Positions 6,977 to 63,842 of a DNA stretch of 64,000 nucleotides are shown one piece after another; the stretch's first letter is position 1, and each line of letters starts with the position of its first letter. The translations under genes were made by a program, and so were the position numbers. The notes under the pieces were generated by a model. That model saw only the letters and a list, made by a program, of their open reading frames with translations, searched no databases and had not been told where the DNA came from. Source of the DNA: an uncultured Gammaproteobacteria bacterium. GTDB lineage: Bacteria > Patescibacteriota > Patescibacteriia > Magasanikbacterales > UBA922. The DNA is taken from positions 44,215 through 108,214 of the forward strand of contig CAYFPM010000001.1 in assembly GCA_964345045.1 (NCBI GenBank), read 5' to 3'.

Positions 6977-8590
6977 TTGCTTACTCTGCTTACTAACTTA
7001 GTTTATAATTTTATTATGAGACCAAAACCATTAGTACTAGCTATTTGTGATGGTTGGGGGGTAGCACCGGACGCAGATGGCAATGCTATCACTAGGGGTA
7101 AAACTCCTAATTTTGATAAATTCTTAAAAGAGTTTCCAGCTATGACTTTGCTTGCTTCTGGCAATGAAGTCGGGCTTATGTTTGGAGAAATGGGAAATTC
7201 CGAAGTTGGGCATTTGAATATTGGAGCTGGTAGAGTTTATTATCAAACTTTTCCTAGAATAAACAAAAGCATTAGTGACGGAAGTTTCTTTTCTAATGAA
7301 GCTTTGCAAAATGCTATTGGACATGCCAAAGAAAATAAATCAGATCTCCATATTATGGGGTTGGTAAGTCCGGGCAATATTCATGCTAGTCAGGATCACT
7401 GTTATGCCTTGCTGGAACTGGCCAAAAAAGAAAAAGTTAAAAATGTTTATATTCATGTTTTTTTGGATGGACGTGATACTGGCAAAGATACTGCAATTGA
7501 TTTTGTAAATAAATTACAAGCAAAAATGAAAGAGTTGAAAATAGGAGAAATCGCTAGTCTATCCGGCAGGATGTATGCTATGGATAGAGATAATAATTGG
7601 GATAGGATAGAACCAGCCTACAAAGCAATTGTAGAAGGAGTCTCCACCGAATATTTTGCCGATCCTATAGAAGCTATCAATGCTTCTTATGAAAAGCAAG
7701 TTTATGACGAAGAGTTTGTCCCAACAGTAATTGGGAAAGAAGGTAAACCGACTGCCATAGTCAAAGATAATGATGCTGTAGTATTTTTTAATTTTCGTCC
7801 AGATAGAGCGCGTCAATTGACAAAAGCTTTTGTTCTGCCGGGTTTTGATAAATTTGCCAAAAAAGAATTGCAGAATTTGTTTTTTGTGACCATGATAGAA
7901 TACGAAAAAGAATTGCCAGTAGAAGTAGCCTTCCCTCCAATTGTAGTACACAACTGTTTGGCCGAGGTTTTGAGTAAGAATAATTTGAAACAATTACACA
8001 TTGCCGAAACACAAAAATATGCTCATGTTACTTTCTTTTTGAATGGAACATTGGAAGATCCTTTTCCTCTAGAAGATAGAAAATTGATCCCTTCTCTAAA
8101 AGTTAATTCTTTCAAAGAAGCTCCGGAGATGTCTGCAGCTGAGATTACCAAAGAAGTTGTAAAAGCAATAGAATCTGATGTGTATGATGTGATTATTCTA
8201 AATTTTGCTAATTCCGATATGGTAGGACACACTGGAGATTTTGAAGCGGCCAAACAAGGTATAGAGATAATAGACAAAGGTCTTGGAGCTATTGCAGATC
8301 ATGTTCTTGCCAAAGGTGGAATATTTATGATTACAGCGGATCATGGCAATGCCGAAGAAGAGATTAATTTGCAAACTGGGAATATAAACAAAGAACATAC
8401 TACCAATCCGGTACCATTTGTAATTATTGGCGAACAGTATCGTGGTCAAGCTGGGCCAGGTGGAGATGCGCCAAATGGGGATCTAAGCTTGCTGCAACCT
8501 GTGGGCATGCTAGCCGATGTAGCGCCGACTGTATTGTCTGTACTTGGTTTAGAACAGTCACCGGAGATGACAGGGAGAGCACTTATCTAA
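6977..8590 (+). CDS. gpmI: 2,3-bisphosphoglycerate-independent phosphoglycerate mutase (iPGM) paralog 2
   Basis: ICDGWGVA...GNSEVGHLNIGAGRVYYQ...DHGNAEEE; same family as upstream gene but clearly diverged. Confidence 0.85.
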   Translation: MLTLLTNLVYNFIMRPKPLVLAICDGWGVAPDADGNAITRGKTPNFDKFLKEFPAMTLLASGNEVGLMFGEMGNSEVGHLNIGAGRVYYQTFPRINKSISDGSFFSNEALQNAIGHAKENKSDLHIMGLVSPGNIHASQDHCYALLELAKKEKVKNVYIHVFLDGRDTGKDTAIDFVNKLQAKMKELKIGEIASLSGRMYAMDRDNNWDRIEPAYKAIVEGVSTEYFADPIEAINASYEKQVYDEEFVPTVIGKEGKPTAIVKDNDAVVFFNFRPDRARQLTKAFVLPGFDKFAKKELQNLFFVTMIEYEKELPVEVAFPPIVVHNCLAEVLSKNNLKQLHIAETQKYAHVTFFLNGTLEDPFPLEDRKLIPSLKVNSFKEAPEMSAAEITKEVVKAIESDVYDVIILNFANSDMVGHTGDFEAAKQGIEIIDKGLGAIADHVLAKGGIFMITADHGNAEEEINLQTGNINKEHTTNPVPFVIIGEQYRGQAGPGGDAPNGDLSLLQPVGMLADVAPTVLSVLGLEQSPEMTGRALI

Positions 8591-38155: not shown

Positions 38156-38230
38156 CTCCCCCTATCAGGGGGAGTTAGAGGGGGTCTGGTAGACGATTTG
38201 ACCCCACCTAACCTCCCCTGATAGGGGAGG
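38156..38230. repeat. composite GC-rich palindromic element (CTCCCCCT-N4-AGGGGGAG family), intergenic copy
   Basis: ctccccctatcagggggag ttag agggggtctggtagacgatttgacccc ... cctcccctgataggggagg; same architecture as in-frame copy in queA. Confidence 0.7.
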
Positions 38231-45160: not shown

Positions 45161-46294
45161 ATGAAAACAATAGATTTTGATTATAATTTACCAACAGAGT
45201 TAATTGCTCAAAAAAGTGTGGAACCAAGAGACCATTCTAGGTTAATGCTGGTCGATAAAAAAAATAAAAAAATTGAACACAAAAAATTTTTTGATATTGT
45301 AGATTATTTTAATAAAGGAGATCTAGTAGTGTGGAATAATTCCAAAGTTTTCAAAGCCAGACTACTTGGTAAGCTGGTTTCGGATAATAATGAAGAATTG
45401 AGAGATCACAAAAAACCAATGGAAATTTTTCTTGTTCGTCCCATGGAAAACTATGGTGTATGGCAAGCACTGGCCAAACCAGGCAAGCATGCCAGACCCG
45501 GCACCAAGATTCATTTTGCCAGTGGTTTTGATGCCGAGGTAGTAGTAAAGAAAAGAGATGGGACTATCTTAATCCAGTTTGATTATGATGCGGATAAAGT
45601 TCGTGAACTAGCAAATAGACATGGACACATTCCAATTCCGCCGTATGTAAAAGACGAACCGCACGAGCTAGAGATGTACCAAACCAGTTATGCCAGTCTA
45701 GACAAAGAAGGTTCGGTAGCCGCCCCTACAGCCGGCTTTCACTTTACTCCGGAATTAATTGAGAAGCTAAAAGCCAAGGGCGTAGAATTTGCCGAGGTGA
45801 CGCTACATGTGGGGTTAGGGACATTCTTACCAGTGAAGTCTGAGCGAATTGAAGACCACACTATGCACAGCGAGTGGGTAGAGCTAAGCAGTGAGACTGC
45901 CGAGAAGATAAATAAGGCCAAGAGTGAGGGTAGGAGAGTAGTGGCCGTGGGGACGACTACGGTGAGGACGCTAGAGGGGATTGCGAAATTTTCTCTCCCC
46001 CTAAGAGGGGGAGCTGGAGGGGGTCCGGATTCAGATAGACCCCCCTTTGTCCCCCCTGATAGGGGGGAGGTTGTCCGGCCCTACGTGGGAGACATCAACC
46101 TCTTCATCACTCCTGGTTTTGAGTTTCGGGTGATTGACGCCATGATTACCAATTTCCACCTGCCAAAATCTACCTTGCTAATGTTGGTAGCTGCTTTTGT
46201 GGGGGACAGGGAGTTTACTTTGGATTTTTATAATAAAGCAGTAGAAGAAAGATATAGATTTTTTAGTTTTGGTGATGGGATGTTTATTTATTAG
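45161..46294 (+). CDS. queA: S-adenosylmethionine:tRNA ribosyltransferase-isomerase, with in-frame GC-rich insertion
   Basis: MKTIDFDYNLPTELIAQ..PRD..RLM and ITNFHLPKSTLLMLVAAF; extra Pro/Gly-rich segment LPLRGGAGGGPDSDRPPFVPPDRGEVVRP. Confidence 0.85.
   Translation: MKTIDFDYNLPTELIAQKSVEPRDHSRLMLVDKKNKKIEHKKFFDIVDYFNKGDLVVWNNSKVFKARLLGKLVSDNNEELRDHKKPMEIFLVRPMENYGVWQALAKPGKHARPGTKIHFASGFDAEVVVKKRDGTILIQFDYDADKVRELANRHGHIPIPPYVKDEPHELEMYQTSYASLDKEGSVAAPTAGFHFTPELIEKLKAKGVEFAEVTLHVGLGTFLPVKSERIEDHTMHSEWVELSSETAEKINKAKSEGRRVVAVGTTTVRTLEGIAKFSLPLRGGAGGGPDSDRPPFVPPDRGEVVRPYVGDINLFITPGFEFRVIDAMITNFHLPKSTLLMLVAAFVGDREFTLDFYNKAVEERYRFFSFGDGMFIY
45995..46070. repeat. composite GC-rich palindromic element inserted in frame in queA
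   Basis: ctccccctaagagggggag ctgg agggggtccggattcagatagacccc ... cccccctgataggggggagg; near-copy of 38156-38230. Confidence 0.75.
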
Positions 46295-47560: not shown

Positions 47561-48856
47561 TTACATCCACTTTTTTTTCAAGTTTAAAAATTTGTTTTTT
47601 TCTATAGCTTCGCGCATTTCTTCCATAAGTTTGGTTAGGAAATGAAGATTGTGAATAGTGCCTAGTTTGTAAGCCAGCAATTCTTCGGCTTTGAAAAGGT
47701 GGTGCAAATAGCCTGCAGAAAAATTCTGGCAAGTATAGCAATCGCATTTTTTATCAATTGGTTTTTTGTCAGTTTTGAATTTGGCGTTTAGGATGTTGAT
47801 AGTATATTTTTTTCGTCTACCGAGTTGCCCCCCTCTCGCACTCGCTACGCTCGTGTCGTCTCCCCCTACAAGGGGGAGAGAATAAGGGCGTACATACAAG
47901 GTTCCGTTGCGGGCGATGCGAGTAGGCGAGACACAGTCAAACATATCAATCCCACGTTCGACTACCTCGAACAGGTCTAGTGGCGAGTGGCCTAGACCCA
48001 TGGTGTAGTGAGGTTTGTCTTCTGGAATGTGCGGCATAACCCAGTCTAAGATTTTTTTGGTAGCGGCCATGTTGTAGCCTATGCTCTCACCACCAATGGC
48101 AATGCCATCGAAATTTTGTTCGGAGATAAATTTGGCACTCTCGATCCTCATGTCCTTGTGCCCGGCGCCCTGCACAATACCAAATAGGAATTGTTTGTAG
48201 CCATGATATTTTTTATTTTTTTTATGAGCTTCGATAGACTCTATAGCCCAGCGGTGGGTTCTTTCTAGGGCTTCTTTAGTGTATTTCTCATCAGCCTTAT
48301 CTGGAGTACATTCGTCAAAAGCCATAATAATATCTGCTCCAATTTTGTGCTGAATATCTATAGAAGATTTGGGAGTGAATCTATGTTTCGATCCATCGAT
48401 ATGACTACGAAAATCTACTCCGTTTTCATCTATGCTTACGAGTTTGCTGTTGTTTGAAGCTTGTTTTTCCCCTTCGAATGACCCCCTCTGGCCTTCGGCC
48501 ATCTCCCCCTTGTAGGGGGAGAGATTTTTTCTTTCTTTCATCTCCATTTGTTTCCCGAGGGAGAAAACTTGGAATCCACCAGAGTCAGTCAAGATTGGAC
48601 CATCCCAGCCCATAAATTTGTGTAGTCCTCCAAACTTGGCAACGAGGTCTTCGCCTGGTTGCAAATGCAAATGATAAGTATTTCCGAGAATTATCTGCGC
48701 ATCTAGAGCTTGCAATTCATTAGGATCAAGAGATTTTACAGTGGCCTTGGTTCCCACTGGCATAAAACACGGAGTTTGGATTTCACCGTGATCAGTTTTT
48801 ATTACCCCAGTGCGGGCATTGGTTTTTTTATCTTTGTGTTTTATTTCGAAAAACAT
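47561..48856 (-). CDS. tgt: queuine tRNA-ribosyltransferase with two in-frame GC-rich insertions
   Basis: GVIKTDHGEIQTPCFMPVGT, DSGGFQV, CDCYTC zinc site; insertions of about 35 and 27 aa relative to canonical Tgt. Confidence 0.88.
   Translation of the reverse strand: MFFEIKHKDKKTNARTGVIKTDHGEIQTPCFMPVGTKATVKSLDPNELQALDAQIILGNTYHLHLQPGEDLVAKFGGLHKFMGWDGPILTDSGGFQVFSLGKQMEMKERKNLSPYKGEMAEGQRGSFEGEKQASNNSKLVSIDENGVDFRSHIDGSKHRFTPKSSIDIQHKIGADIIMAFDECTPDKADEKYTKEALERTHRWAIESIEAHKKNKKYHGYKQFLFGIVQGAGHKDMRIESAKFISEQNFDGIAIGGESIGYNMAATKKILDWVMPHIPEDKPHYTMGLGHSPLDLFEVVERGIDMFDCVSPTRIARNGTLYVRPYSLPLVGGDDTSVASARGGQLGRRKKYTINILNAKFKTDKKPIDKKCDCYTCQNFSAGYLHHLFKAEELLAYKLGTIHNLHFLTKLMEEMREAIEKNKFLNLKKKWM
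47826..47885. repeat. GC-rich palindromic element (core ctccccctacaagggggagag) in frame within tgt
   Basis: core hairpin CTCCCCCT-ACAA-GGGGGAG; encodes Pro/Gly/Arg-rich insertion. Confidence 0.7.
48478..48530. repeat. GC-rich palindromic element (core ctcccccttgtagggggagag) in frame within tgt, inverted relative to 47860 copy
   Basis: reverse complement of the 47860-47880 core; preceded by ggccttcggcc hairpin. Confidence 0.7.
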
Positions 48857-53186: not shown

Positions 53187-53780
53187 TAAGCCTCCCAGGC
53201 ATTGTAAGCCTTTCTAGCCTCCCGGGCTTTCCTACTGTGGATAACCAATTTGACTCAAACTTTCGTCTATACTAATCTACTTACTAATATGAAAAATATT
53301 TCTCTAACAATTCGTCGTTGCGTGAAAAGCCTATGGACTACACTGGCTGCCTTTGCATATGTGACAAATGTCTATAAGACACATACATATGTGCCGGCCA
53401 CTGGGGTGATGTACTTACAAAATGACGAAGGAGAAGAAAGCAACTGCGATAACTGCGGATGCAGAGGAAGCGAAGAATAAAAAGTCATTATAAAAAAGTA
53501 AATCACCCTAGAGATAGGGTGGTTTTGTTTAATAGAAGCTTACAAAGCTAGCAATGCCCACAAGGCTTACAAGGTTTAAAAAGCCTGGTAAGCCTCGTAG
53601 GCCTTATAAGCCTTGTAAGCATTTACAGAGTTCTTTTTACAAGGAGAAAATAAATGGTAATGGAAAAAACTGTGTCGGTATTAGCCAATAGATTTGTTGG
53701 TTGCTACCGACACAGTTAGGTCGCTGGGTTGGGTGCAGGCTCTGTCTGCAAAAAACAATGACCAGGAAGGCTTCGTTACA

Positions 53781-53984
53781 ATGACTACTAGAAAAATTAC
53801 AATGACTCAGTTCATCAGCGATTCGGCCGAAGCGGCGGCTACCCAAGGTGGTTCCCACGACGCTATCGCAACCGGGCTCGATATCGAGCTTATGCCCAAG
53901 GGGGATACCAACAGTGAAGAACCTCTTCCTATCGCTGACTGCAGCACGTTCGCTTGGGGCGATAGACCCTGGTATCTGCAGTAG
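53781..53984 (+). CDS. small (67 aa) GC-rich hypothetical protein
   Basis: RBS aggaagg 8 nt upstream; preceded by a 21-codon uORF with strong RBS aaggagaaaataa-ATG and an 11-bp-stem hairpin. Confidence 0.3.
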   Translation: MTTRKITMTQFISDSAEAAATQGGSHDAIATGLDIELMPKGDTNSEEPLPIADCSTFAWGDRPWYLQ

Positions 53985-54274
53985 CAGCAAGTCTCAACCT
54001 AGGATCAATTCCATTACCACCATTCCTATATACATTTTTTTACAAAGTGTATAGAGACAATGGAAAAATTTAAAACAAATTATGAATTTAAATACTTATA
54101 CATATTATTATTTGCTTCCACTAGCCAAGTGAGAGTAGTTTTGTTTTTTTGCAAAAACACTCCTTGGCTAGGGGTGTTTTTGTTTGTGGGTTGCCAAGAG
54201 ATTTTAAATAGTTTAAAGTCTGCTGGGGATTCTGCAAGGAGAATTTCTCCTGCAAAAAAGGAAGGAGGAATCCT

Positions 54275-54451
54275 ATGTCGAATACGTTTCAGGTCGAGGG
54301 GCACAAGCGCTGCGTGGTCAGCATCGTTGGATCTGCGGATCTGGGGGTGCCTACCGAGATCAAGTGCCTGGACTGTGGAAAGAAGGGGAATGAGGCTCAG
54401 CTCGAGGTCGAGCCCTGTCGAGAGGTCTCGAGCGAAGACGAAGCCGCTTGA
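54275..54451 (+). CDS. small (58 aa) Cys-containing acidic protein, GC-rich
   Basis: strong RBS aaggaggaa; C..CLDC..C pattern; followed by hairpin terminator 54488-54520. Confidence 0.4.
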   Translation: MSNTFQVEGHKRCVVSIVGSADLGVPTEIKCLDCGKKGNEAQLEVEPCREVSSEDEAA

Positions 54452-54586: not shown

Positions 54587-55723
54587 ATGAAACTCAATAG
54601 CAAAATAAAAAATTTAGCAGAGTCTGCTACTTTGGCTATAAATAACTTGGCTTTGGAAAAAAGAAAAATGGGGGAGCGAGTTTTTAACTTGGCTGCCGGT
54701 GAACCTATGGTAGAAACTCCAGAGGTAGTGATAAACGCCGCCACCAAAGCCATGAAAAATGGCAAAACACACTATCCTCCAGTTTTGGGGATTCCAGAAT
54801 TACGGACTGCTGCCGCAGAGTGGATAAACAAAAATTACCAAACCAATTTTACTACAGAAGAAACAATTGTTACCTGCGGCGGCAAACACGCTCTGGCTAT
54901 GACACTAGAAGCCATTTTGGATCCGGGAAACGAAGCTATAATAATTTCTCCATATTGGGTGTCTTATCCAACTATGGTAGAAAAAAATGAAGGAGTAGTT
55001 AGAATTGTAGAAACGCAAGAAAAAAATAATTGGAAAGTTAAAATAGAAGATTTGGAAAAAAGTTGTACAGACAAAACCAAAGTTTTACTTTTTAACAATG
55101 CTGCCAACCCTACCGGAGTGCTTTATGAAAAAAATGAAGTGGAAGCAATTTTAAAATTTGCCAAAGAAAAAAATATAATAGTTATTTCGGACGAGGTTTA
55201 TAGTGGATTAGTTTATGATGATAAAAAATTTACCTCGGCCGGAAGTTTTGCCGAACACAAAAATAATGTTGTAATTATACAAAGTGCTTCCAAAAGTTTT
55301 GCTATGACGGGGTGGCGAGTTGGTTTGGTATTTGGGGAGATAGAATTGATAAAAGCCTTAAAAAAATTACAAAGTCAAACTACCAGTGGAACTAGTAGCA
55401 TAAGTCAGTGGGCCGCTTTAGCCGCTTTGCAAAATTCAGAAGAGATAACTAAAGAGCTTAAAAAAGAAATGCAAAAAAGAAGAGATTTTTTTGTAGATAA
55501 TTTTTTTACGGAAATAAACAAACCTCAAGCTGGTTTGTATAGTTTTATATCTTTGCAAAAATTTGGCATAGAAAATAATAACTCTGTAGAATTTTGCAAA
55601 AAAGTTTTGCAAGAAAAAAATATTGCCATGGTTCCGGGAGCTCCGTTTGGGGCAGAGGGGTTTGTAAGAATTTCTTTTGGGGTGGAGATTGAGGAGTTGA
55701 AGGGAGCTTTGAGTAGTTTGTAG
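54587..55723 (+). CDS. class I/II pyridoxal-phosphate aminotransferase (aspartate aminotransferase-like)
   Basis: NLAAGEP..., SASKSFAMTGWRVG PLP-lysine motif. Confidence 0.85.
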   Translation: MKLNSKIKNLAESATLAINNLALEKRKMGERVFNLAAGEPMVETPEVVINAATKAMKNGKTHYPPVLGIPELRTAAAEWINKNYQTNFTTEETIVTCGGKHALAMTLEAILDPGNEAIIISPYWVSYPTMVEKNEGVVRIVETQEKNNWKVKIEDLEKSCTDKTKVLLFNNAANPTGVLYEKNEVEAILKFAKEKNIIVISDEVYSGLVYDDKKFTSAGSFAEHKNNVVIIQSASKSFAMTGWRVGLVFGEIELIKALKKLQSQTTSGTSSISQWAALAALQNSEEITKELKKEMQKRRDFFVDNFFTEINKPQAGLYSFISLQKFGIENNNSVEFCKKVLQEKNIAMVPGAPFGAEGFVRISFGVEIEELKGALSSL

Positions 55724-55758
55724 TTGGTTGTGGGTAGTTGGTAGTGAGTAGATTTTGA

Positions 55759-55859
55759 GAGTCATCCTGACTCGCCGTGGCGAGGAAGGATCCCAGTGGT
55801 AGTCCAAAGAGATCCTTCGACTGCGTTCGTCCTTTGGACTCACTCCGCTCAGGATGACT
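55759..55859. repeat. nested-inverted-repeat MITE-like element, copy 2
   Basis: outer IR gagtcatcctga...tcaggatgact, inner IR gtccaaag...ctttggac, core cgaggaaggatcccagtgg shared with 41799-41878. Confidence 0.6.
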
Positions 55860-55895
55860 TTGCTTAACTCTTTCATTATTCCTTATTCCAATCAT

Positions 55896-56097
55896 TTGAC
55901 ACTCTTTTTCAAGAGGCATATACTAAAAGTGATCCTGGCAAATTTGGACGAATATTCATATTCTACAAACTAGCTATTATGGAATACCTATATCGTCTCG
56001 ATCCGTGGATTGAGATTGCGGTTATCCACCTATTTTATAGGGATAGCGAATAACGTCCGGCTTGGATCATCAAAAAACAGCTAAAAGGCTGTTTTTT
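55896..56097 (+). promoter_or_regulatory. promoter (TTGACA-17-TATACT) + 24-codon ORF MEYLYRLDPWIEIAVIHLFYRDSE + intrinsic terminator, followed by second promoter TTGATT-16-TAGTAT at 56110-56137
   Basis: same promoter/short-ORF/terminator layout as the three downstream attenuators, but peptide not strongly biased (3 Tyr, 1 Trp). Confidence 0.35.
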
Positions 56098-56167
56098 GTT
56101 TTTTCTATTCTTGATTTTTTATCAATTTATGCTAGTATCAATTTCGCAACAACGGTGTTGCTAAAGA

Positions 56168-57772
56168 GTGAGGTTTGTCGTGAAAGTTTTGAGAGAAGTA
56201 GCAAGTGATATTGGTGGGCTCGTTTCGGTGGTGAACCGTGATACGGTTCGCCAATTCGCGCCGAACGATGGCGGCAATGTGTCGCCTATCGCCATGGAGT
56301 GGAGTTCCTTCTTGAGAGGGACGAGTGCCGACCAGGACTTGATCAAGCTGTGTAAACGTAACCAGGTGTGGCAAGTCATCGTGGTCACGCTCCCCGTGAA
56401 TACCTCCTACCTCGAGTTGGTTCGGGGGAGCGAGTTCGAGGGGGCTGACGTCGAGGAAATCTCCAATATGAATGGTGGGTTTGTCCACTACGTCCTGGTT
56501 CGGGCCAACGAGGGGCCGGCCGGCCCCATGAGCGTGGCAATCGGGGGCGATTGCCTGCGCCCAGAGGCCACCTTGACCGAGGTGTTCGAGAGAGCCTCGC
56601 TCTTGGCCACGGCCATGAGAGCAAAGGCCAGGTCGTTTTTGCCCAGTATGCCCGGCTTCCACGCCGGCAAAAAGGGAGCCCTACTCCTCGTCGACCGAGA
56701 TGGCGAGCGCGTGGTGCTGAGCAATCCCTCGGCCATGGCACTCTCGGCACCGGCCATGGTGCTTGGAGTGGGGTTTGCCAACCGACTACGCGTAGAGAGC
56801 TGTGCTGCTTGGGCTAGCCGCTATCGACTACCGCTCGGGGTTTTGTCTCCGGATTCTCTCTCCCCGGACGTGGTTACGGGAGGAGGGTGGACTCGGCTTG
56901 CCCAGGCATTCCGCTACTACGGGCTTGACTCTCGTATGGCCACCTGCCAGCCGGGCAAGACGCCGAATCCCTCGTCGGTGCCCACTGGCCAAGGTGTAGC
57001 CACGGCTGCTCTAGAAGTGGCCAAGTGGCTGCGGGAGTCGGGTAGAGTCCCGCAGGGCGAGCCGATTCGGGTGCTTGTCGAGGCTGCTGGCGCAGTGACG
57101 CAGGGCATGTTCCCACTGCTGCTAGAAGAAGGATTGGTGAAACCCGAGTACCTCACCTTCTACGACCCTAGCAGAGAGGCGATCGCCGTGATCGAGGCTC
57201 TGGTACCCGGCTGCCAAACGCTCTGTCGTTCGAACGATGTGGCACTCAGCAAGTTGGCCAACAAGACCTTCGATATCTTGATCAACAATGGCCTGGGCAA
57301 CCACTTGGGTACGCCAAAGCATATGGAGCACTTGGGAAGGATGGTTAGGTCTGGAGGACAGTTGGTGGTCTTGGGTGGAGCCAACAACATCATCAAGTGG
57401 GACAACCCGGCACTCAACTTGCCTCTCGTCATGGCTGAACGAGGAATTCAGGTGATCCCCGATACGGCTGTGTCGGGCGGTGGTTGGACCTTGGCCTTGG
57501 CTGGCCAAGCTGCCGAAGTGGCCGGGGTTGACCCGAGCAAATTGGCCAACCCGGTCAGTTCGTTTGTGTGTCGCTCGGTCTCGAGGAGAATTCAATCTGC
57601 CCTTGTCGCCTTCGGCGAGGGTGGTGGCGACCACCTCTGGAAGATCGTCTCGGAGCAGATGGAAGAGGCCGCTCCGTCGCTCGACCTGGTTCTCCCCGAG
57701 GACGAGTGGGCGGCGGCTGTCGATCCGAGAGACTTCCTGCGAGCGATAGGTGTGTCGCTCCAGGGCGAGTAG
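56168..57772 (+). CDS. Glu/Leu/Phe/Val-dehydrogenase-family (amino-acid dehydrogenase-like) protein, highly divergent; alternative GTG start 56180
   Basis: VVLGGANNIIKWDNPALNLPLVMAERGIQVIPDTAVSGGGWTL aligns with family block EGANGPTT..A..IL.ERGI.V.PDILANAGGVTVS; canonical GxGxxG replaced (VEAAGAV). Confidence 0.45.
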   Translation: MRFVVKVLREVASDIGGLVSVVNRDTVRQFAPNDGGNVSPIAMEWSSFLRGTSADQDLIKLCKRNQVWQVIVVTLPVNTSYLELVRGSEFEGADVEEISNMNGGFVHYVLVRANEGPAGPMSVAIGGDCLRPEATLTEVFERASLLATAMRAKARSFLPSMPGFHAGKKGALLLVDRDGERVVLSNPSAMALSAPAMVLGVGFANRLRVESCAAWASRYRLPLGVLSPDSLSPDVVTGGGWTRLAQAFRYYGLDSRMATCQPGKTPNPSSVPTGQGVATAALEVAKWLRESGRVPQGEPIRVLVEAAGAVTQGMFPLLLEEGLVKPEYLTFYDPSREAIAVIEALVPGCQTLCRSNDVALSKLANKTFDILINNGLGNHLGTPKHMEHLGRMVRSGGQLVVLGGANNIIKWDNPALNLPLVMAERGIQVIPDTAVSGGGWTLALAGQAAEVAGVDPSKLANPVSSFVCRSVSRRIQSALVAFGEGGGDHLWKIVSEQMEEAAPSLDLVLPEDEWAAAVDPRDFLRAIGVSLQGE

Positions 57773-57899
57773 AGCGACTGCCTGGCTCCGGCCCCTAGTC
57801 TCTTTTTAGGCCAGGCGCGACACCAATTTTTGTTCTTTTTTGTTGCGGCGAGCCTAGATTTTACCTTTGGTATATCTGGGCTCGTTGCACACACTCATC

Positions 57900-58059
57900 T
57901 TGACAAGAAGCAGAGATTTGTGTATATTAGTTTTAATCTTATGAAAACAAATATCCACAACTTCTTTTTCTTTTCTTTCTTTATCCCGCCAAAGAGTCGT
58001 GGTGTTTTGAGTTAATGCAAATTAAAATCAAGATTACCCCGACTCGTCGGGGTTTTTTG
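57900..58059 (+). promoter_or_regulatory. Phe-rich leader-peptide attenuator: promoter TTGACA-17-TATATT, near-leaderless ORF MKTNIHNFFFFSFFIPPKSRGVLS (57941-58015), intrinsic terminator 58036-58059
   Basis: 6 Phe codons in a 7-codon run (TTC TTT TTC TTT TCT TTC TTT); alternative pairing gagtcg(57998)/cgactc(58042) could act as antiterminator. Confidence 0.6.
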
Positions 58060-58167
58060 TTTATTCGGGTTTGGCGAAAGGTGATTAGACTTTTCGCTAA
58101 CCTCGAAGCCATAGTGGCTGAGGGGTTGAGACAATTTTTTCGCGAAAGCGAGAGAGGACAATAGACA

Positions 58168-59019
58168 ATGAAGAGTGAGCGAGAGTTTCTTGCCCAATAC
58201 ATGGACGGACCGGAGCATCGGCCAGACTGGGCTGGACATTCTGCGTTCGAGCTCGAAGGTCAGTTTGCCTTGCGTGGTGGCAATACCAACACCCAGCTGG
58301 TCTACCCGGTTGGACATTTGGTCTACAATGGCTTGATGAAAAGCTTCCCAAATGATCAGGAGCGCTTTAGCCCAGAGTTCAGCAACACTCAGGTGGAGCT
58401 GAACACCGGTGCTTGTGCAACCCCCGATCTGACGCTGGCAAAATTGCTCGAGCTGGTGGGGAAGATCAACCAGGTCGCTGGTCGTCACAACTTCCAGTTC
58501 GTGGATCACGAGTTCATCCCACTCAACGTGTGGGTTCCCGAGCAGGTATCACCGCTGGTGCCCCGCTACCAGCAGTTTGCCAACGATCCAGCCAACGTCG
58601 AGCGCGTGCCGCTGATGCACCGGGTGGCAGCGGCTCAGGTGCAGTGGGGCTGCGCCGATCCGGAGGAGCGTTTGGCACTCTTGAACGCCCTCACCACCGA
58701 ACTCGGTACCATGGAGAGCTTGGGATGGATCGACCCTGGTCGCAAGGCCGCGTTCGAAAAAATCCATGCCGGTTGGTACCCGCCTCCCTTCGACACTTGG
58801 AGTCGGTTTTACGAGTACATCCGAAGTCACCAAGATGGCGTGGCCATGATCGAGAGCCCGGCTCTGTACTACGCAGCAGTGCGTCCTCACCACGTGTACA
58901 GCACTGTCGAGCTCCGGCTCCCCGGCGCTACGCTCGATCCGGAGCGCTTGTTCCAGATTGTGTCGTTCGTGGCCGAGGTGTACAGCCAAGTCTGTAGGCG
59001 ACGTAGTGTAGCTGTCTAG
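58168..59019 (+). CDS. GCS2-family (glutamate-cysteine ligase family 2 / carboxylate-amine ligase) paralog, short form
   Basis: N-terminal AFELEGQ (E-x-E) and C-terminal STVELRLPGATLDPERL resembling YbdK TVEVRVMDTP block; middle HVHVG/LSAASP blocks not recognised. Confidence 0.4.
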   Translation: MKSEREFLAQYMDGPEHRPDWAGHSAFELEGQFALRGGNTNTQLVYPVGHLVYNGLMKSFPNDQERFSPEFSNTQVELNTGACATPDLTLAKLLELVGKINQVAGRHNFQFVDHEFIPLNVWVPEQVSPLVPRYQQFANDPANVERVPLMHRVAAAQVQWGCADPEERLALLNALTTELGTMESLGWIDPGRKAAFEKIHAGWYPPPFDTWSRFYEYIRSHQDGVAMIESPALYYAAVRPHHVYSTVELRLPGATLDPERLFQIVSFVAEVYSQVCRRRSVAV

Positions 59020-59136
59020 TCCCCCCCGAAGCATTCCTGCCCCACAAGAATGCTTCACCCCTTCCCTTTGTACAAAAATAATTTTGTATAGAGAAAAGAG
59101 GATTCTATTTTAAAAAGGAGATTATGCACATTTTGA

Positions 59137-59300
59137 TTGACAGGAAAGTAGAATTTGGATAATATCTAAATATTATGAAAAATAAGCGCAACATTCTGCT
59201 ACTAAGCCTGCTAGCTCTAGCCCCAGAGAGTGGTGATGTTGTGTTATCTGCCTAAGCAAAAACACATATTAGCAACACCGCTCATCTGCGGTGTTTTTGT
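59137..59300 (+). promoter_or_regulatory. Leu-rich leader-peptide attenuator: promoter TTGACA-17-TAATAT, leaderless ORF MKNKRNILLLSLLALAPESGDVVLSA (59175-59255), intrinsic terminator 59275-59300
   Basis: 6 Leu in 8 codons, four of them rare-looking CTA; terminator caccgc tcatct gcggtg ttttt. Confidence 0.6.
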
Positions 59301-59368
59301 TTACTTTGTCGAATTAAGCTTGGACTGAGTAGAGTAAAACTCATTCAGTTCAGACCGATTCTGACAAT

Positions 59369-60694
59369 TTGATTGGACGCTGCGTTGCAGCAAGGAGAGA
59401 AAGCCCCATGGCAACCCCGTGGACTACAGAAAACCTTCAAACCGCTGGCCGAGATGCACTTGCAAATTTGCTGGCGGAGAGTTCGCGAGCAGTTGCCAAG
59501 GCCTCAAATTCTGGTTGGATGGCTTTCGAGATGGAAGCCTCTCTGACCAAACTTCGCATTCCTGATTTGGCTGGGGTCTGGCCTGAAGTGAAGAGGGCTG
59601 ACGAGGTAGGTGTGGTCGTGGACGAGTTTCAAGACTACATGATCGAAGGCGTCCCTCCGCGTGACGCTGGAATCGTGGACGCGATGGGACTTCGTAGTTC
59701 GATCCTAGATGTAGCAGAGGCTATGGTCGCTGCTTGCGACAAGGCTGGCGTGCGCCTTACTCCCATTGCTCACCCTGATTCTTGGGGGGGGAAGCGGGAT
59801 ACCAAGATGCCTCAAAAGGCCGACCACCAGCGCATGGTTCGAGACACCATGCCGGCGGTTGGCTTGGGGGCTATTGGGGCCTCGCTCCAGCTCCACTGTG
59901 CCCACCCCTGCAACATCACCGAGGACAGATACTGGCGTACCCTCTTGCTCCTCCAGCAGCACGCGCCGCTCCTCTTGGCCTTGTCGGCCAACAGCCCCAA
60001 GAGCGGTAGCATGATTCATGGCAGCGTTCGGTATCTGCTTAGCCGATCGGTTTGGTCATTCCAGCCGTACTTCTGGCAGAGCTACGAAGAGTTCGTGGAT
60101 CATGTGCATGCACTTGTCCAGTACGGCAGCATCACCGGGCCGCACAACCTGCACGGTTGGGTCAAAGCCTGTGTCGGTTCGATCGAGCAACGTATCTGCG
60201 ACATTCCCGGTACTGTCCAAGAGATCTGGACGCTCTGTGCTCTGATGCGCGCTTTGGTGCAGTACTGCTACGAGCAGGCAGCTGACCCCAATGGATTCCT
60301 TCTTCAGGGAGATATTGGTCGTGATCAGCTGCTCTTGGCTCTGGAGCAGGCGGCCACCTTTGGCCTTTCCGACATGCAGGATTGCCGAATCCAAAGCCCG
60401 TGGGAAGGTCAGCGCGTCAAGCTCTACGATCTGTTCATGGAGCTCGGCAATCGCGTCGGAGATATCATGACGGATCAAGGGGCTGACTGGGAGAGGCAGT
60501 ACCTCTTCGAGCATATGCTCGCCGATCAGAAATGCGGCGAGAACGGAGCCACCCGGTTTGCGCGTTGGCACGAGCAGCACGACGGCAACATGACCAGGGT
60601 GGTGGAGGCCGCTAGCCGGCACTTCGGGCAGTCTCTCGGAGAGGCGAAAAAATCTCTGTCTGCGATGCAGCCAGATCAAGTCGTGAATCAATAG
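59369..60694 (+). CDS. GCS2-family carboxylate-amine ligase (glutamate-cysteine ligase family 2)
   Basis: LQLHCAHP (cf. HVHVG), LLALSANSPKSG (cf. LSAASPYMQG), SIEQRICDIPGT (cf. TVEVRVMDTP). Confidence 0.55.
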   Translation: MIGRCVAARRESPMATPWTTENLQTAGRDALANLLAESSRAVAKASNSGWMAFEMEASLTKLRIPDLAGVWPEVKRADEVGVVVDEFQDYMIEGVPPRDAGIVDAMGLRSSILDVAEAMVAACDKAGVRLTPIAHPDSWGGKRDTKMPQKADHQRMVRDTMPAVGLGAIGASLQLHCAHPCNITEDRYWRTLLLLQQHAPLLLALSANSPKSGSMIHGSVRYLLSRSVWSFQPYFWQSYEEFVDHVHALVQYGSITGPHNLHGWVKACVGSIEQRICDIPGTVQEIWTLCALMRALVQYCYEQAADPNGFLLQGDIGRDQLLLALEQAATFGLSDMQDCRIQSPWEGQRVKLYDLFMELGNRVGDIMTDQGADWERQYLFEHMLADQKCGENGATRFARWHEQHDGNMTRVVEAASRHFGQSLGEAKKSLSAMQPDQVVNQ

Positions 60695-60890
60695 TTCCTT
60701 TTGTGTAGTTAGCCATAGTTTTGGAGGCTGGCCCACTACACTCCCTTCCTTTTGCACAAAAGTTATTTTGTATAGAAGAGAGGTATAAATTAGTTTTCAC
60801 GCTGGCTCCATAGTCCCAGAGGTCTATGGAGCCAAATTGCCACAATACGGCTCCACAGGGCTACGCCACTATGGAGCCAGCATAGTAGTT

Positions 60891-60991
60891 CCTCCCCTAT
60901 AAGGGGAGGCTAGGTGGGGTCAAATCGTATACCAGACCCCCTCCCCGATGCTTTGATCGGGGCAGGCCAACTCCCCCTATTAGGGGGAGAG
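60891..60991. repeat. composite GC-rich palindromic element (CTCCCCCT-N4-AGGGGGAG family), long variant, just upstream of Ile-leader promoter
   Basis: cctcccctataaggggagg ... ggggtcaaatcgtataccagacccc ... ccccgatgctttgatcgggg ... ctccccctattagggggagag. Confidence 0.7.
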
Positions 60992-61009
60992 TTTCTGTCC
61001 ACAAAAACA

Positions 61010-61165
61010 TTGACATCCGCCTACAGCTCTGATAGGGTGAAGATAATATGAACAAACTATTCAACATTATTATTTGGATTATCGCCCAGTTTGGTGGTAA
61101 GTTTGTTCGTGAATAAAAATATTTACAACAAAAAATTACCGCCGGAGATGGCGGTATTTTTTTTC
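61010..61165 (+). promoter_or_regulatory. Ile-rich leader-peptide attenuator: promoter TTGACA-17-TAGGGT, leaderless ORF MNKLFNIIIWIIAQFGGKFVRE (61048-61116), intrinsic terminator 61136-61165
   Basis: 5 Ile in 7 codons; terminator taccgcc ggagat ggcggta tttttttt; RBS taggaagg before downstream gene. Confidence 0.6.
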
Positions 61166-61267
61166 TCGATCTTTGCAAACGTACTGGGTAGCACTGTGAT
61201 TACAAAATGTATTCAGAGTGGTGCCTAGTACCAAATTTTGTTTTTTGACAATGCAATATAGGAAGGT

Positions 61268-62617
61268 GTGACAATGAATCGGAAAATGAAAGAAGTTGCT
61301 CGTCGGGTCGCAGACCTGATCGAGGCGATGAACTACGCTGGACAGCGTGGGCTCCAGCTTGGGACAGAGCGAGAATTGGTAGCTGTGAAGGCCTCGAATC
61401 CTCGAGAGGTCGGAGGCTTTGCACTCTCTGTCGCCCAGAATCTCGCGACACAGCCAGGTTGGACAGCTGTCTACGACGGCACCACCGATCTGGTGGTTGG
61501 AGCCAAAAGTCCTGGTGGCGAGTACGAGGTCATGACCGACGCTGGCAAGTGGGTTCTAGAATACTGCCCGCTCGCACCGTGCGACTCTCTCAATAGTCTC
61601 GATAGGTTGTGTGGGGAGGCCGAGCGAACGATTATCTCGGCATCCCAAGGGCTTGGTTTCGAAGTTCTCGGTCTTGGGCGGCATCCGCTCTTTCTGGCAA
61701 ACCGGAGTAGCTGGACCCCAAAGCTGCGCTACAATGGTCTGCAGTCAGTTCTCAAGAACGGGGGCCACGAGACCTGCGAGACTGCTTCGCACCAAGATAC
61801 TGTAGACGTACGAAATTCGGGACACATGATGCAGGTGGTCAACATCGGCAACGCTCTAGCAGGTCCGGTTGCCGCTATCTGCGCCAACTCGCTAGTGTTT
61901 CACGGAGAAGTGCATCAAGATCAACTGGCCAGCCGGTTGCTGACGTGGCAAAGGATTTGCCACCCGGTACAATTCGCTCGAGTGGGTATCCCCATGGTCT
62001 TTCGGGACGTAGGGCACTACGCCGAATACCTGGTGCGTTTGCCGTACCTCTTCCACATTCACGAAACTGGTGTTGCCGACGTGTTCGACAAACCTTTCTA
62101 CGAAGCGGTTGAGTACTTCGAGAGCGTTGACTTCGGACGTTTGCTGCAGATTCACATGGCTTGCGTGTGGTTCGATGCTCGGGTACGCATGAACAAGTGT
62201 GCCAGTGTCGAGCTGCGAGCACCGTGTGCTCAGCCTCAAGGCATGGGTCAAGCGGTGTCTGCTCTACACCTAGGGCTGGTTCACAACTCGGCAGCTGCCA
62301 GCAACTTGGTGCTGACGCATTCTTGGGATGAGTGGCAGGCAGCGCGCTTCGATGCCGCCAATTTGGCACTCAACGCCAGCGTTGGATCTGAGCCTATGGC
62401 AGAGGTGGTCCGGTCTATGTTGCACGTGGCCGAAGATGGCTTACGCTTAGCCGGAGAGGACCCTACCAGGCTTGCCCCGCTGTGGCAACGACTCGAGGAT
62501 CCTTCTCAATTGCCAGCTATGATGGCCGGCAAGCTCTTTGTCGAGGGTGGAATAGATGCCTTGGTAGAGGCCAGGCGCTTCCAACTACAGCAAGAGCCAG
62601 TAGCTCGCGCTTCTTAG
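61268..62617 (+). CDS. GCS2-family carboxylate-amine ligase paralog
   Basis: LGTERELVAV N-terminal E-x-E, ICANSLVFHGE, ASVELRAPCAQP (cf. TVEVRVMDTP). Confidence 0.5.
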   Translation: MTMNRKMKEVARRVADLIEAMNYAGQRGLQLGTERELVAVKASNPREVGGFALSVAQNLATQPGWTAVYDGTTDLVVGAKSPGGEYEVMTDAGKWVLEYCPLAPCDSLNSLDRLCGEAERTIISASQGLGFEVLGLGRHPLFLANRSSWTPKLRYNGLQSVLKNGGHETCETASHQDTVDVRNSGHMMQVVNIGNALAGPVAAICANSLVFHGEVHQDQLASRLLTWQRICHPVQFARVGIPMVFRDVGHYAEYLVRLPYLFHIHETGVADVFDKPFYEAVEYFESVDFGRLLQIHMACVWFDARVRMNKCASVELRAPCAQPQGMGQAVSALHLGLVHNSAAASNLVLTHSWDEWQAARFDAANLALNASVGSEPMAEVVRSMLHVAEDGLRLAGEDPTRLAPLWQRLEDPSQLPAMMAGKLFVEGGIDALVEARRFQLQQEPVARAS

Positions 62618-62744
62618 TTCTTTTGCGGATCTCATCCATCCGCCTACTCCTTTTGTAGACGAAAAATCGTCTGCAAAAGAAGACTCTTAGCCAATTGACT
62701 AAGGGGAAAAATTTTGATATATTTTATTCCATTTATAAAAAATT

Positions 62745-63842
62745 ATGGACAATAATAAATTGGACGACATAGTAGCCTTAACCAAAAAATTGGTTCATTT
62801 TCGTGGTACCGAAAGTAGAGTAGAAAATCTTCGCCGTTGTGCAGATTTTATTGCTGATTATTTTATAGATAGTGGCCTTACAGTAGAGCGCTTTGAAAAA
62901 GATGGATACCCTTCGGTCGTAGTCACCAAACATGGCACCAAAAAACCCAAAATTTTTCTAAACGGACATTTTGATATGGTAGAGGGAGAAGATCACCAAT
63001 TTGATCCCAAAATAGAAGGAGACAGAATGTTTGGTAGGGGAGTGTTTGATATGCAAAGTGGCAATGCTGTTATTATGACATTGATGAAAGAACTAGCTCA
63101 TACCGAACACGATGTAGGATTAATGCTAACCGGAGACGAAGAAGCCGGTGGTTTTCGGGGTGTTGGTTATGTAATGGATTTTAACTATAGTTCGGATGTA
63201 GTAATAATTCCCGATGGTGGCATGGCCGTAGAAAATATTATAAGTAGAGAAAAAGGGATTATAAGATTTGATCTACAAGCTCATGGCAAAAGATCTCATT
63301 CGGCCTATCCTTGGCTTGGTGACAATGCTATTACCAAATTGATGAGTGGAATAGAAAAAACACTAGCTCTTTTCCCAGAATCAGAAAAAGATATAGAAGA
63401 TAATTGGACAACCAATGTAGCTGTAACCAAAATTAATGCTGGTATAGGTGGCAATGTAGTACCGGAAAAAGCCTATGCTCATTTTGATGTTCGTTATATT
63501 ACAGAGGACAACCCCGAAGAAATCTTGGAAAGAATTAGAAAAGTTTTGCCAGACGGAGTAGATTTAAAATTAGATTTTATAGAACCAGCTACCAGCACAG
63601 ATACTAGTAGTCCATATGTAGAAAAATTTGTCGAAACCCTAAAAGAGCACGACAAAGAACCAAAATTCATTTCGGCTATGGCGGCCTCTGATTCTAGATT
63701 TTTTCACGAAAGAGGCATTCCGTTTATCATAAGCCAACCAGAAGGTGGCGGACATCACGGTCCATACGAATGGGTAAGAGTTTCGGCAATTGGCAAATAT
63801 TACGATATACTAAAGTCATACCTAGATAAGGTTGCCAGGTAA
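62745..63842 (+). CDS. M20-family metallopeptidase (ArgE/DapE/dipeptidase-like)
   Basis: LNGHFDMVEGE and TGDEEAGG metal-ligand motifs. Confidence 0.8.
   Translation: MDNNKLDDIVALTKKLVHFRGTESRVENLRRCADFIADYFIDSGLTVERFEKDGYPSVVVTKHGTKKPKIFLNGHFDMVEGEDHQFDPKIEGDRMFGRGVFDMQSGNAVIMTLMKELAHTEHDVGLMLTGDEEAGGFRGVGYVMDFNYSSDVVIIPDGGMAVENIISREKGIIRFDLQAHGKRSHSAYPWLGDNAITKLMSGIEKTLALFPESEKDIEDNWTTNVAVTKINAGIGGNVVPEKAYAHFDVRYITEDNPEEILERIRKVLPDGVDLKLDFIEPATSTDTSSPYVEKFVETLKEHDKEPKFISAMAASDSRFFHERGIPFIISQPEGGGHHGPYEWVRVSAIGKYYDILKSYLDKVAR

Follow-up and report, generated by a model that had tools for sequence, protein, structure and literature searches.

The classic enterobacterial leaders, among them ilvL (of ilvGMEDA), ivbL (of ilvBN) and the trp, his, leu, thr and phe leaders, carry a short open reading frame (ORF) with a run of regulatory codons and RNA regions that pair as 1:2, 2:3 or 3:4. 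An intrinsic terminator lies before the first structural gene, and a stalled ribosome favours the antiterminator. We analysed an element with these features in a 64,000-nucleotide stretch of contig CAYFPM010000001.1 (hereafter the window), where an isoleucine-rich leader ORF and a terminator (61010-61165, + strand) precede gene 4, an amidoligase gene of the GCS2 (glutamate-cysteine ligase family 2) superfamily. We conclude, on evidence that is computational throughout, that this element is likely to be a transcription attenuator of the ribosome-mediated leader-peptide type, responsive to the availability of charged tRNA-Ile. The mechanism is already known. What is new is the lineage and the regulon, made up of divergent glutamate-cysteine-ligase-like amidoligases and an M20 peptidase in a lineage-specific GC-rich island.

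The locus departs from the enterobacterial leaders in several respects. It belongs to none of them by sequence or Rfam model, and its host is no proteobacterium but resembles members of the Candidate Phyla Radiation (CPR, Patescibacteria). No Shine-Dalgarno sequence precedes the leader ORF, which starts a few nucleotides from the predicted 5′ end of the transcript. Each attenuator would control a single non-biosynthetic gene (a GCS2-type amidoligase) instead of a biosynthetic operon, and one island contains several of them in tandem, for different amino acids. The leader in the window has a run of Ile only, whereas in that of a homologous locus, L016 (NLLVILVIIL), Ile, Leu and Val occur together, as they do in ilvL. 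At gathering thresholds, no Rfam family matched the region. Below threshold, the model Phe_leader (RF01859, pheL-pheA) gave full-length alignments with the Ile leader (32.2 bits, 61044-61164) and with a Phe-rich sister unit (27.1 bits), whose peptide segment FFFFSFFIPP resembles the Phe runs of pheL. Neither score comes near the gathering score of 55, and non-canonical pairs are numerous in the alignments, so that we rejected membership of this family. These matches carry no weight, because the same model scored 26.8 bits on an unrelated AT-rich terminator stretch in a related genome (L011).

In mycobacteria, leaderless polycysteine short ORFs act as Cys-responsive attenuators (bioRxiv 10.1101/834739). 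Like the present leader, they are leaderless or near-leaderless short ORFs with a run of a single amino acid at the 5′ end of the transcript, and downstream control depends on the supply of that amino acid. Phylum, amino acids (here Ile, Leu, Phe and Tyr) and targets differ, and the units described here have an explicit intrinsic terminator and antiterminator. ErmCL and CatA86L are also short hydrophobic leader ORFs on which a stalled ribosome remodels the downstream RNA. They need a conserved peptide and a ligand and act mostly on translation; the present units conserve only the repeated codon and act through a terminator. T-box riboswitches likewise sense the charging of a specific tRNA through an antiterminator/terminator switch. 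In contrast to them, the present leader has no stem I, specifier loop or T-box sequence, measures ~90 nt as against 200 nt or more, and has an ORF instead; the Rfam search gave no T-box (RF00230) match at E ≤ 10 in 55700-62800 or 60990-61290. Readings as a T-box, a type I toxin or a drug-inducible leader fail on the features tested, and a reading as the precursor of a ribosomally synthesised and post-translationally modified peptide was likewise set aside. In a literature search of incomplete coverage, leader-peptide attenuation was not found described for CPR bacteria or ahead of GCS2 genes.

Anatomy of the isoleucine leader

The leader ORF (61048-61116, + strand) lies between the TTGACA at 61010 and gene 4, on the same strand as that gene, and encodes the 22-codon peptide MNKLFNIIIWIIAQFGGKFVRE with no Shine-Dalgarno sequence ahead of it. 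Its codons are ATG AAC AAA CTA TTC AAC ATT ATT ATT TGG ATT ATC GCC CAG TTT GGT GGT AAG TTT GTT CGT GAA TAA. The regulatory codons, ATT ATT ATT TGG ATT ATC (61066-61083), place five Ile in six consecutive codons. At least five identical residues within seven codons appeared in 10 of 5000 dinucleotide shuffles of the leader ORF, and the same density was attained by 10 of 360 short ATG-initiated ORFs elsewhere in the window. The UAA (61114) is followed after 20 nt by the terminator stem, and the ORF lies 157 nt upstream of the gene-4 ATG.

The intrinsic terminator consists of the arms TACCGCCG and TGGCGGTA, separated by GAGA (stem 61137-61156, + strand), and a T8 tract (61157-61164); it was detected both by a terminator scan and in the minimum free energy (MFE) fold of the free leader. 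Its stem has eight pairs, five of them G-C (-12.2 kcal/mol), and is terminator-like on both strands. The 5′ arm, together with an A-rich lead-in, makes up region 3 (AAATTACCGCCG, 61133-61144). Region 1 (TTATCGCC, 61079-61086) lies inside the last Ile codons and pairs in the free RNA with region 2 (TGGTGGTAAG, 61092-61101, codons Gly-Gly-Lys), forming the hairpin 61079-61100. Region 2 can have either region 1 or region 3 as its partner. Regions 1-4 (61079-61156) thus have the layout of a classic four-region attenuator. Both 1:2 and 3:4 form in the MFE fold of the free leader RNA. When the RNA is folded as it stands before region 4 is made, with a ribosome on any of Ile codons 7-11, an antiterminator is obtained (61092-61144, + strand; -20.5 kcal/mol), in which the 2:3 helix closes an inner helix and a hairpin.

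These pairings exceed what base composition yields in shuffled controls. Folding of the leader RNA (61045-61170) is much stronger than that of its shuffles (z = -5.6; none of 200 folded as well). The region 2:3 duplex has an energy of -12.6 kcal/mol, compared with -6.5 ± 1.8 kcal/mol for shuffled upstream sequence (p ~0.007; fraction 0.006-0.008).

Masked folding was performed by holding a 33-nt ribosome footprint single-stranded and shifting the A site codon by codon along the leader. With the A site on codons 2-9, that is, through the first three Ile, the MFE structure is the antiterminator and contains no terminator pair. From codon 10 to the stop, the MFE structure is the terminator. The onset of the switch fell at codon 9 or 10, a shift of at most one codon, for footprint 3′ edges from A+11 to A+16. 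Scored against 400 shuffled leader bodies, a switch defined as antiterminator at the first two codons of the run and terminator at the stop was found in 8 (about 2%). In folds of the RNA preceding region 4, stalls on Ile codons 7-11 gave the antiterminator (-20.5 kcal/mol), and a ribosome at the stop codon left region 3 entirely unpaired.

The element would operate as follows. Transcription would begin about 3 nt 5′ of the AUG, so that a ribosome would load on the 5′ end at once. When Ile-tRNA is plentiful, the ribosome would reach the UAA at 61114 and mask region 2 (61092-61101); the 3:4 terminator (61137-61156 plus U8) would then form and the transcript would stop after about 120 nt. A shortage of Ile-tRNA would hold the ribosome on the ATT/ATC run (61066-61083), where it would mask region 1 only. 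Region 2 would then pair with region 3 once the latter is made, and the resulting antiterminator (61092-61144) would block the terminator and allow RNA polymerase to continue into gene 4. In RNA free of ribosomes, 1:2 and 3:4 would form and transcription would terminate, as in the classic design.

A putative leader promoter can be read at 61010-61038 (+ strand), with the -35 hexamer TTGACA (61010-61015), a 17-nt spacer, an extended -10 TG (61030-61031) and the -10 hexamer TAGGGT (61033-61038). The leader ATG follows 9 nt after the -10 hexamer, and transcription is predicted to start at ~61045, 2-3 nt before the ATG. The distance from TTGACA to ATG, 32 nt, is that of the sister unit with a Leu run (59137-59175), for which the consensus scan did call a promoter. 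In all related leaders except the Ile leader of locus L015, for which the promoter reading is ambiguous, the ATG lies 7-13 nt after the -10 hexamer. This spacing supports near-leaderless leader ORFs, and on sequence a leaderless start near 61045 appears plausible.

Gene 4 (61274-62617, + strand; 57% GC) encodes a 447-aa amidoligase of the GCS2 superfamily that is most similar to plant-type glutamate-cysteine ligase. It is the third GCS2 gene in the row (Pfam GCS2, E = 4e-10). The ATG at 61274 was also picked by the gene caller in another assembly (447 aa) and is preceded by the Shine-Dalgarno sequence AGGAAGG (61260-61266, + strand). The family profile of gene 4 matches PDB entries 2gwc and 6gmo, of the plant-type glutamate-cysteine ligase, over their full length (E = 4e-53). 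This profile search of PDB sequences was used instead of a structure prediction, which, from a three-sequence alignment, reached a predicted local distance difference test (pLDDT) score of 37 and was not used.

Most of this anatomy had been anticipated in an earlier note made from the sequence alone. Its count of five Ile in seven codons is right and even conservative, given five in six; its strong terminator with T8 corresponds to the 8-bp stem at 61137-61156 and the tract at 61157-61164; its long imperfect inverted repeat (61176-61235) does fold, as a hairpin at 61181-61231; and the ribosome-binding site that it placed ahead of the third GCS2 gene is the AGGAAGG at 61260-61266, followed by the ATG of a gene with a Pfam GCS2 match.

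Sister units and homologous loci

The window is low in GC (about 35-40%), and its aspartate aminotransferase is up to 59% identical to CPR proteins (Magasanikbacteria, Uhrbacteria). The + strand has four GC-rich ORFs within 56168-62617 (57-60% GC; 60-71% GC at third codon positions, GC3), separated by AT-rich spacers. Three of these four are weak but clear GCS2 matches. We scanned both strands of the whole window for ATG-initiated ORFs of 10-40 codons that contain at least four identical residues in seven codons and end 5-35 nt before a terminator. Only the Ile, Phe, Leu and Tyr units were returned, all on the + strand and ahead of GC-rich genes.

The Phe unit (57900-58062, + strand) has the promoter TTGACA-17-TATATT, the ORF 57941-58015 (MKTNIHNFFFFSFFIPPKSRGVLS) and a terminator at 58036-58053 with a T-run, and precedes gene 2 (GCS2; 58168-59019). 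Its run was equalled in 1 of 5000 shuffles and its switch in 7 of 400. For the Leu unit (59137-59303, + strand; promoter TTGACA-17-TAATAT, ORF 59175-59255 MKNKRNILLLSLLALAPESGDVVLSA, terminator 59274-59295 with a T-run), which stands ahead of gene 3 (GCS2; 59408-60694), the corresponding counts are 59 of 5000 and 4 of 400. The Tyr/Thr unit (54082-54188, + strand) is the weakest. Its ORF (54082-54132, MNLNTYTYYYLLPLAK) and terminator (54155-54179 with a T-run) lie ahead of a GC-rich 58-aa ORF (54275-54451); the switch is rare in shuffles (3 of 400) but the run is not significant (594 of 5000), and no clear promoter was found for the unit. In the Phe, Leu and Tyr units, the ribosome-dependent switch sits at the respective run. 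The units are self-contained, with a promoter, an ORF of 16-27 codons and a terminator, and the gap from stop to terminator is 17-22 nt in all five units of the island.

The fifth of these units is a look-alike. Unit 1 (55896-56106) has the promoter TTGACA-17-TATACT, an ORF at 55979-56053 (MEYLYRLDPWIEIAVIHLFYRDSE) and a strong terminator (56071-56098), and gene 1 behind it has a weak promoter-like site of its own (TTGATT-17-TAGTAT). We ruled it out as a fifth attenuator, since it has no run, no antiterminator and no switch; it could have decayed from an attenuator, or be a separate gene for a small RNA or peptide. A history of recent tandem duplication of the GCS2 genes, with leaders that diverged afterwards, was also rejected, as the proteins share no BLASTP-detectable similarity and the spacers align in layout only.

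The exact leader was found only in three assemblies of a single organism (L007, L008 and L010; PRJEB17505, runs ERR2281801-3), all identical to the window; this identity rules out assembly artefacts at the GC-rich/AT-rich junctions. The related genome L011 retains the synteny of aminotransferase, rhodanese, L28, M50, S12, S7 and EF-G and has no island, and the island is therefore a lineage-specific insertion. Searches of genome and metagenome contigs with the M20 protein, the family alignments and gene 4 found no homologous loci. A word-based protein search gave two distant relatives of gene 4, both at loci with no upstream spacer, and none of gene 3. An exhaustive HMMER search returned 444 gene-4 homologues. 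We took as comparative loci the contigs of the four closest of these (L013-L016; 34-37% identity by BLASTP), which are low- or medium-GC and CPR-like, with a GCS2 gene that is again GC-rich.

The presence of a short Ile-rich ORF at homologous loci had been proposed in the earlier note as a check, and such an ORF, rich in Ile or in Ile, Leu and Val, lies upstream of the gene-4 homologue in three of the four (L014, MSISSYLILIIGIILPKRAVWLS; L015, MKQNHAFIINIIIRNP; L016, MFNMHRNLLVILVIILASGGGMLAYQR), L013 having no Ile run. A terminator is present at all three, and each region 2 complements the region 3 of its own locus (-15 to -19.7 kcal/mol; p ≤ 0.002). Their per-codon profiles change from antiterminator to terminator at the run. 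In a stricter test, in which the terminator was also required with the ribosome at the stop, L014 and L015 passed and L016 failed. The sequences of terminator and region 2 vary among loci but change together, that is, they covary. The leader peptides share only their repeated residues (richness in Ile/Leu/Val or in Phe), as expected if the codons alone matter. Other genes of these contigs also stand behind leaders. In L016, a homologue of gene 2 (30% identity, E = 1.5e-7) is preceded by a Phe/Tyr-rich leader (MNTQTLKNFRFYFIRPLGGLCSAA) and a GATase/C26-like gene by a Phe-run leader (MVHTKQFSFSFFFTSSFGG); in L015, an unannotated 501-aa gene follows a Phe-run leader (MKATTPKNTFFNFFGNYLER).

Collectively, the computational analysis shows that the elements exist, can pair in alternative ways, stand out statistically from shuffles and recur, with covariation, in paralogous and homologous loci. 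The proposal that an Ile-rich leader peptide and a terminator act on the downstream GCS2 gene is supported by the anatomy of the leader, the paralogous units and the homologous loci.

Weighing of alternative explanations

Several observations weigh against an attenuator that responds to Ile. We infer the transcript start, the translation of the ORF and the response to Ile. The -10 hexamer TAGGGT is weak and fits the consensus at 3 of 6 positions only, which is why the consensus promoter scan did not call the leader promoter at 61010-61038. In the equilibrium model, the terminator is already preferred at the last two Ile codons (peptide positions 10-11). Transcripts that read through the terminator could be halted at the hairpin and U-run at 61181-61246, and gene 4 is not an Ile-biosynthetic enzyme. 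Within the island, unit 1 (55979-56053) shares the layout yet has neither run nor switch. The contigs that carry the exact leader come from one organism and are identical, so they offer no within-species variation. Among the homologous loci, L013 has no Ile run and no equilibrium switch, though it keeps the ORF, an 18-nt gap, the terminator and the 2:3 complementarity (p 0.02). In L014 a strong promoter-like site (TTGACA-18-TATGAT, 11/12) lies between the leader terminator and the gene, and in L016 the gap from leader to gene is about 460 nt; at these two loci the leader unit may not be the sole control, or may be partly autonomous.

This last point bears on the reading of the unit as an autonomous small gene, encoding a small RNA of ~120 nt or a hydrophobic type I toxin or membrane peptide, that neighbours an independently transcribed GCS2 gene. 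Such a gene would suit the strong -35, the highly structured RNA (z -5.6) and the efficient-looking terminator, which is terminator-like on both strands, and it would suit unit 1, which resembles a stand-alone transcript of this kind, as well as the separation of unit and gene by the second promoter-like site in L014 and by about 460 nt in L016. We nevertheless regard it as improbable. The hydrophobic stretches are 8-12 residues long, the core of the Ile leader (LFNIIIWIIAQF) having 12, and fall below the membrane-spanning length of a type I toxin or small membrane peptide, and the peptides are unconserved among homologous loci save for their richness in Ile/Leu/Val or Phe. An autonomous gene would need neither a 2:3 complementarity that covaries from locus to locus nor a switch point at the run. 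The units are all co-oriented with the island genes and directly 5′ of them, and the promoter scan of the window found no promoter-like site between the leader terminator and gene 4. We give little credence to an attenuator that reads another signal, be it nascent-peptide stalling on a drug or metabolite, as with ErmCL and CatA86, or general translation stress. ErmCL-type inducible leaders are short and hydrophobic, and the island genes are not biosynthetic for their cognate amino acids. Any slowing of the ribosome would induce the Phe and Tyr units, since their free RNA already prefers the antiterminator. However, stalling peptides are conserved in sequence, whereas here only the identity of the repeated residue is kept. 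The four island units each carry a different single-residue run (FFFF, LLL, III, YYY), the signature of codon-specific sensing, and in each the switch point falls on the run.

The remaining explanations treat the ORF itself as incidental. A real switch worked by an RNA-binding protein or by uncharged tRNA in the manner of a T-box, with the ORF a by-product of an AU-rich low-complexity tract, is highly unlikely. It would not need an ATG 7-13 nt past the -10 (the Ile leader of L015 being ambiguous) or a frame that ends 17-34 nt before the terminator, and the ~90 nt of leader before the terminator are too short for a T-box stem I. Neither a T-box nor another convincing Rfam family was found at E ≤ 10, the Phe_leader matches being non-specific. 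What speaks for such a switch is that (AUU)3 of the Ile unit and (UAU)3 of the Tyr unit are one low-complexity sequence in different frames, and that the other frames of the leaders also contain few stop codons. We place almost no belief in a chance ORF in an AT-rich spacer beside an ordinary terminator, for example one that ends upstream transcripts. At about 30% GC, a frame of 22 codons after an ATG would be expected roughly one time in five by our estimate, and the Tyr run taken alone is not significant (594/5000). Yet run, gap and switch are jointly rare in shuffles (switch 8/400, run 10/5000). The pattern occurs four times in 7 kb and nowhere else in the 64 kb, and it recurs at homologous genes of three other genomes. 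The terminator of the Ile unit, moreover, has a -35 hexamer (TTGACA) of its own ahead of it and lies 440 nt beyond the point where gene 3 ends.

The GC-rich island, its surroundings and its possible role

Between the leader terminator and gene 4, the transcript would contain a long imperfect hairpin and then a U-rich tract, AAATTTTGTTTTTT (hairpin 61181-61231, through 61246, + strand), of which the inner part alone (61219-61233) was called terminator-like. A long (17-24 bp), near-perfect hairpin lies shortly 5′ of the ribosome-binding site in every gene-4 homologue examined, namely in the window and in the 5′ untranslated region (UTR) at the four further loci (L013, ~743-793; L014, ~7911-7951; L015, ~7613-7663; L016, ~7836-7888). 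The stem sequence GTCCTTGTC/GACAAGGAC is common to L013 and L016, and a U-run follows the window copy only. The hairpin at 61181-61231 could be a weak second terminator, a stabiliser of the 5′ UTR, a processing site or a second regulatory layer. A short ORF (61148-61228, MAVFFFSIFANVLGSTVITKCIQSGA) begins in the 3′ arm of the leader terminator and ends in the 3′ arm of the long hairpin, with FFF encoded by the T8. It is probably incidental and lacks a Shine-Dalgarno sequence at a usable spacing; its translation would open the second hairpin. In L014, the TTGACA-18-TATGAT site is followed by a four-codon ORF, ATG TTC TTT TTA TAA (MFFL; 7837-7900), which may be a second, minimal leader.

Downstream of gene 4 lies its conserved partner, an M20 (DapE/ArgE-like) peptidase gene (62745-63842, + strand) with a promoter-like site of its own (62695-62723). 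An M20 gene also follows the gene-4 homologue in L013, L015 and L016 (37-44% identity). Neither gene 4 nor this partner makes or charges Ile, a function that is typical of the targets of classical attenuators but inessential to the mechanism.

The island genes are GC-richer than their hosts in all five genomes (GC3 57-78% vs 25-50% for neighbouring genes), and the leaders and spacers are AT-rich like the hosts. The GC-rich genes occupy 56168-62617 in the window, 854-2158 in L013, 8001-9326 in L014, 5790-9116 in L015 and 6287-9368 in L016. Recent transfer alone does not obviously explain a GC-richness that persists in such divergent genomes. Avoidance of the inducing amino acid was rejected as its cause: Phe makes up 5.3% of gene 2 and Leu 9.8% of gene 3, both host-level values, and only gene 4 is poor in its amino acid (Ile 2.2% vs 6.8%). 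With a GC3 of 60-78% in the island genes, the bias is compositional.

Other features were observed within the island and around it. A 34-nt element (CCCTTCCYTTTGYACAAAARTWATTTTGTATAGA), which includes an AT-rich inverted repeat and may be a shared gene-end signal, is present in two copies, 88% identical, after the stops of gene 2 (59059-59092) and gene 3 (60743-60776). Three small ORFs without a family match lie upstream of the aminotransferase. The ORF at 53250-53524 is AT-rich, encodes 63 aa (MKNISLT...NCDNCGCRGSEE) and has its own promoter (TTGACT-17-TATACT) and terminator; that at 53781-53984 is GC-rich and encodes 67 aa ending in ...CSTFAWGDRPWYLQ; and the GC-rich, Cys-containing 58-aa ORF behind the Tyr-rich leader (54275-54451) has an acidic tail (...EVSSEDEAA). 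These three could conceivably be carrier or precursor peptides for the amidoligases. In the same neighbourhood, two four-helix proteins of the 23S-rRNA-intervening-sequence type (PF05635; 51779-52156 and 52830-53186) flank ndk, and the second also matches bAvd (Pfam, contig L008).

A GC-rich palindrome, TCCCCCT-NNN-AGGGGGA (core CTCCCCCTnnnAGGGGGAG), has five copies in the window, compared with 0.08 expected (38157-38173, 45996-46012, 47861-47877, 48504-48520 and 60972-60988). The gene queA (45161-46294) contains one copy and tgt (47561-48856, - strand) two, and in these conserved protein genes they appear as in-frame Gly/Pro/Arg-rich insertions similar to the Rickettsia palindromic elements; their flanks are unconserved. 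In the related CPR genome L011, a promoter (TTGACA-17-TATAGT), ~190 nt of structured leader and a terminator (cagtctcgacatggtcgggattgtttttt) lie at 6345-6580, ahead of the aspartate aminotransferase gene. This leader has no Rfam match at E ≤ 1 and may be an undescribed cis-regulatory RNA.

The physiological role of the Ile leader is probably to induce the amino-acid-related pair of amidoligase and peptidase when Ile becomes scarce for an auxotrophic CPR cell that lives by scavenging. A wider reading is possible, though we hold it only tentatively: the island might form a hitherto unrecognised regulon by which auxotrophic CPR bacteria respond to amino-acid starvation, with divergent glutamate-cysteine-ligase-like amidoligases each standing behind their own near-leaderless Ile, Leu, Phe or Tyr attenuator. 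It would also take in the conserved M20 peptidase and, in relatives, the C26/GATase-type gene, which resembles gamma-glutamyl hydrolases. If this is true, the pairing of one amino acid with one enzyme would report the specificity of the enzyme, for example in forming or cleaving gamma-glutamyl amino acids for capture or release, and a cassette of GC-rich genes with AT-rich leaders would spread among CPR genomes. The fold resembling glutamate-cysteine ligase, the M20 partner and the C26/GATase gene make the formation or cleavage of gamma-glutamyl amino acids, as a means of amino-acid capture by an auxotroph, a speculative suggestion.

CPR bacteria cannot make most amino acids and are hard to grow. 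The attenuators would serve as built-in labels on four GC-rich orphan genes, of which three are distantly related to glutamate-cysteine ligase, each gene being marked as wanted when its own amino acid (Phe, Leu, Ile or Tyr) is short. The leaders thereby give a testable hypothesis on the function and substrate of an uncharacterised and widely scattered CPR protein family of a few hundred members, as well as a testable view of how an obligate scavenger may sense amino acids.

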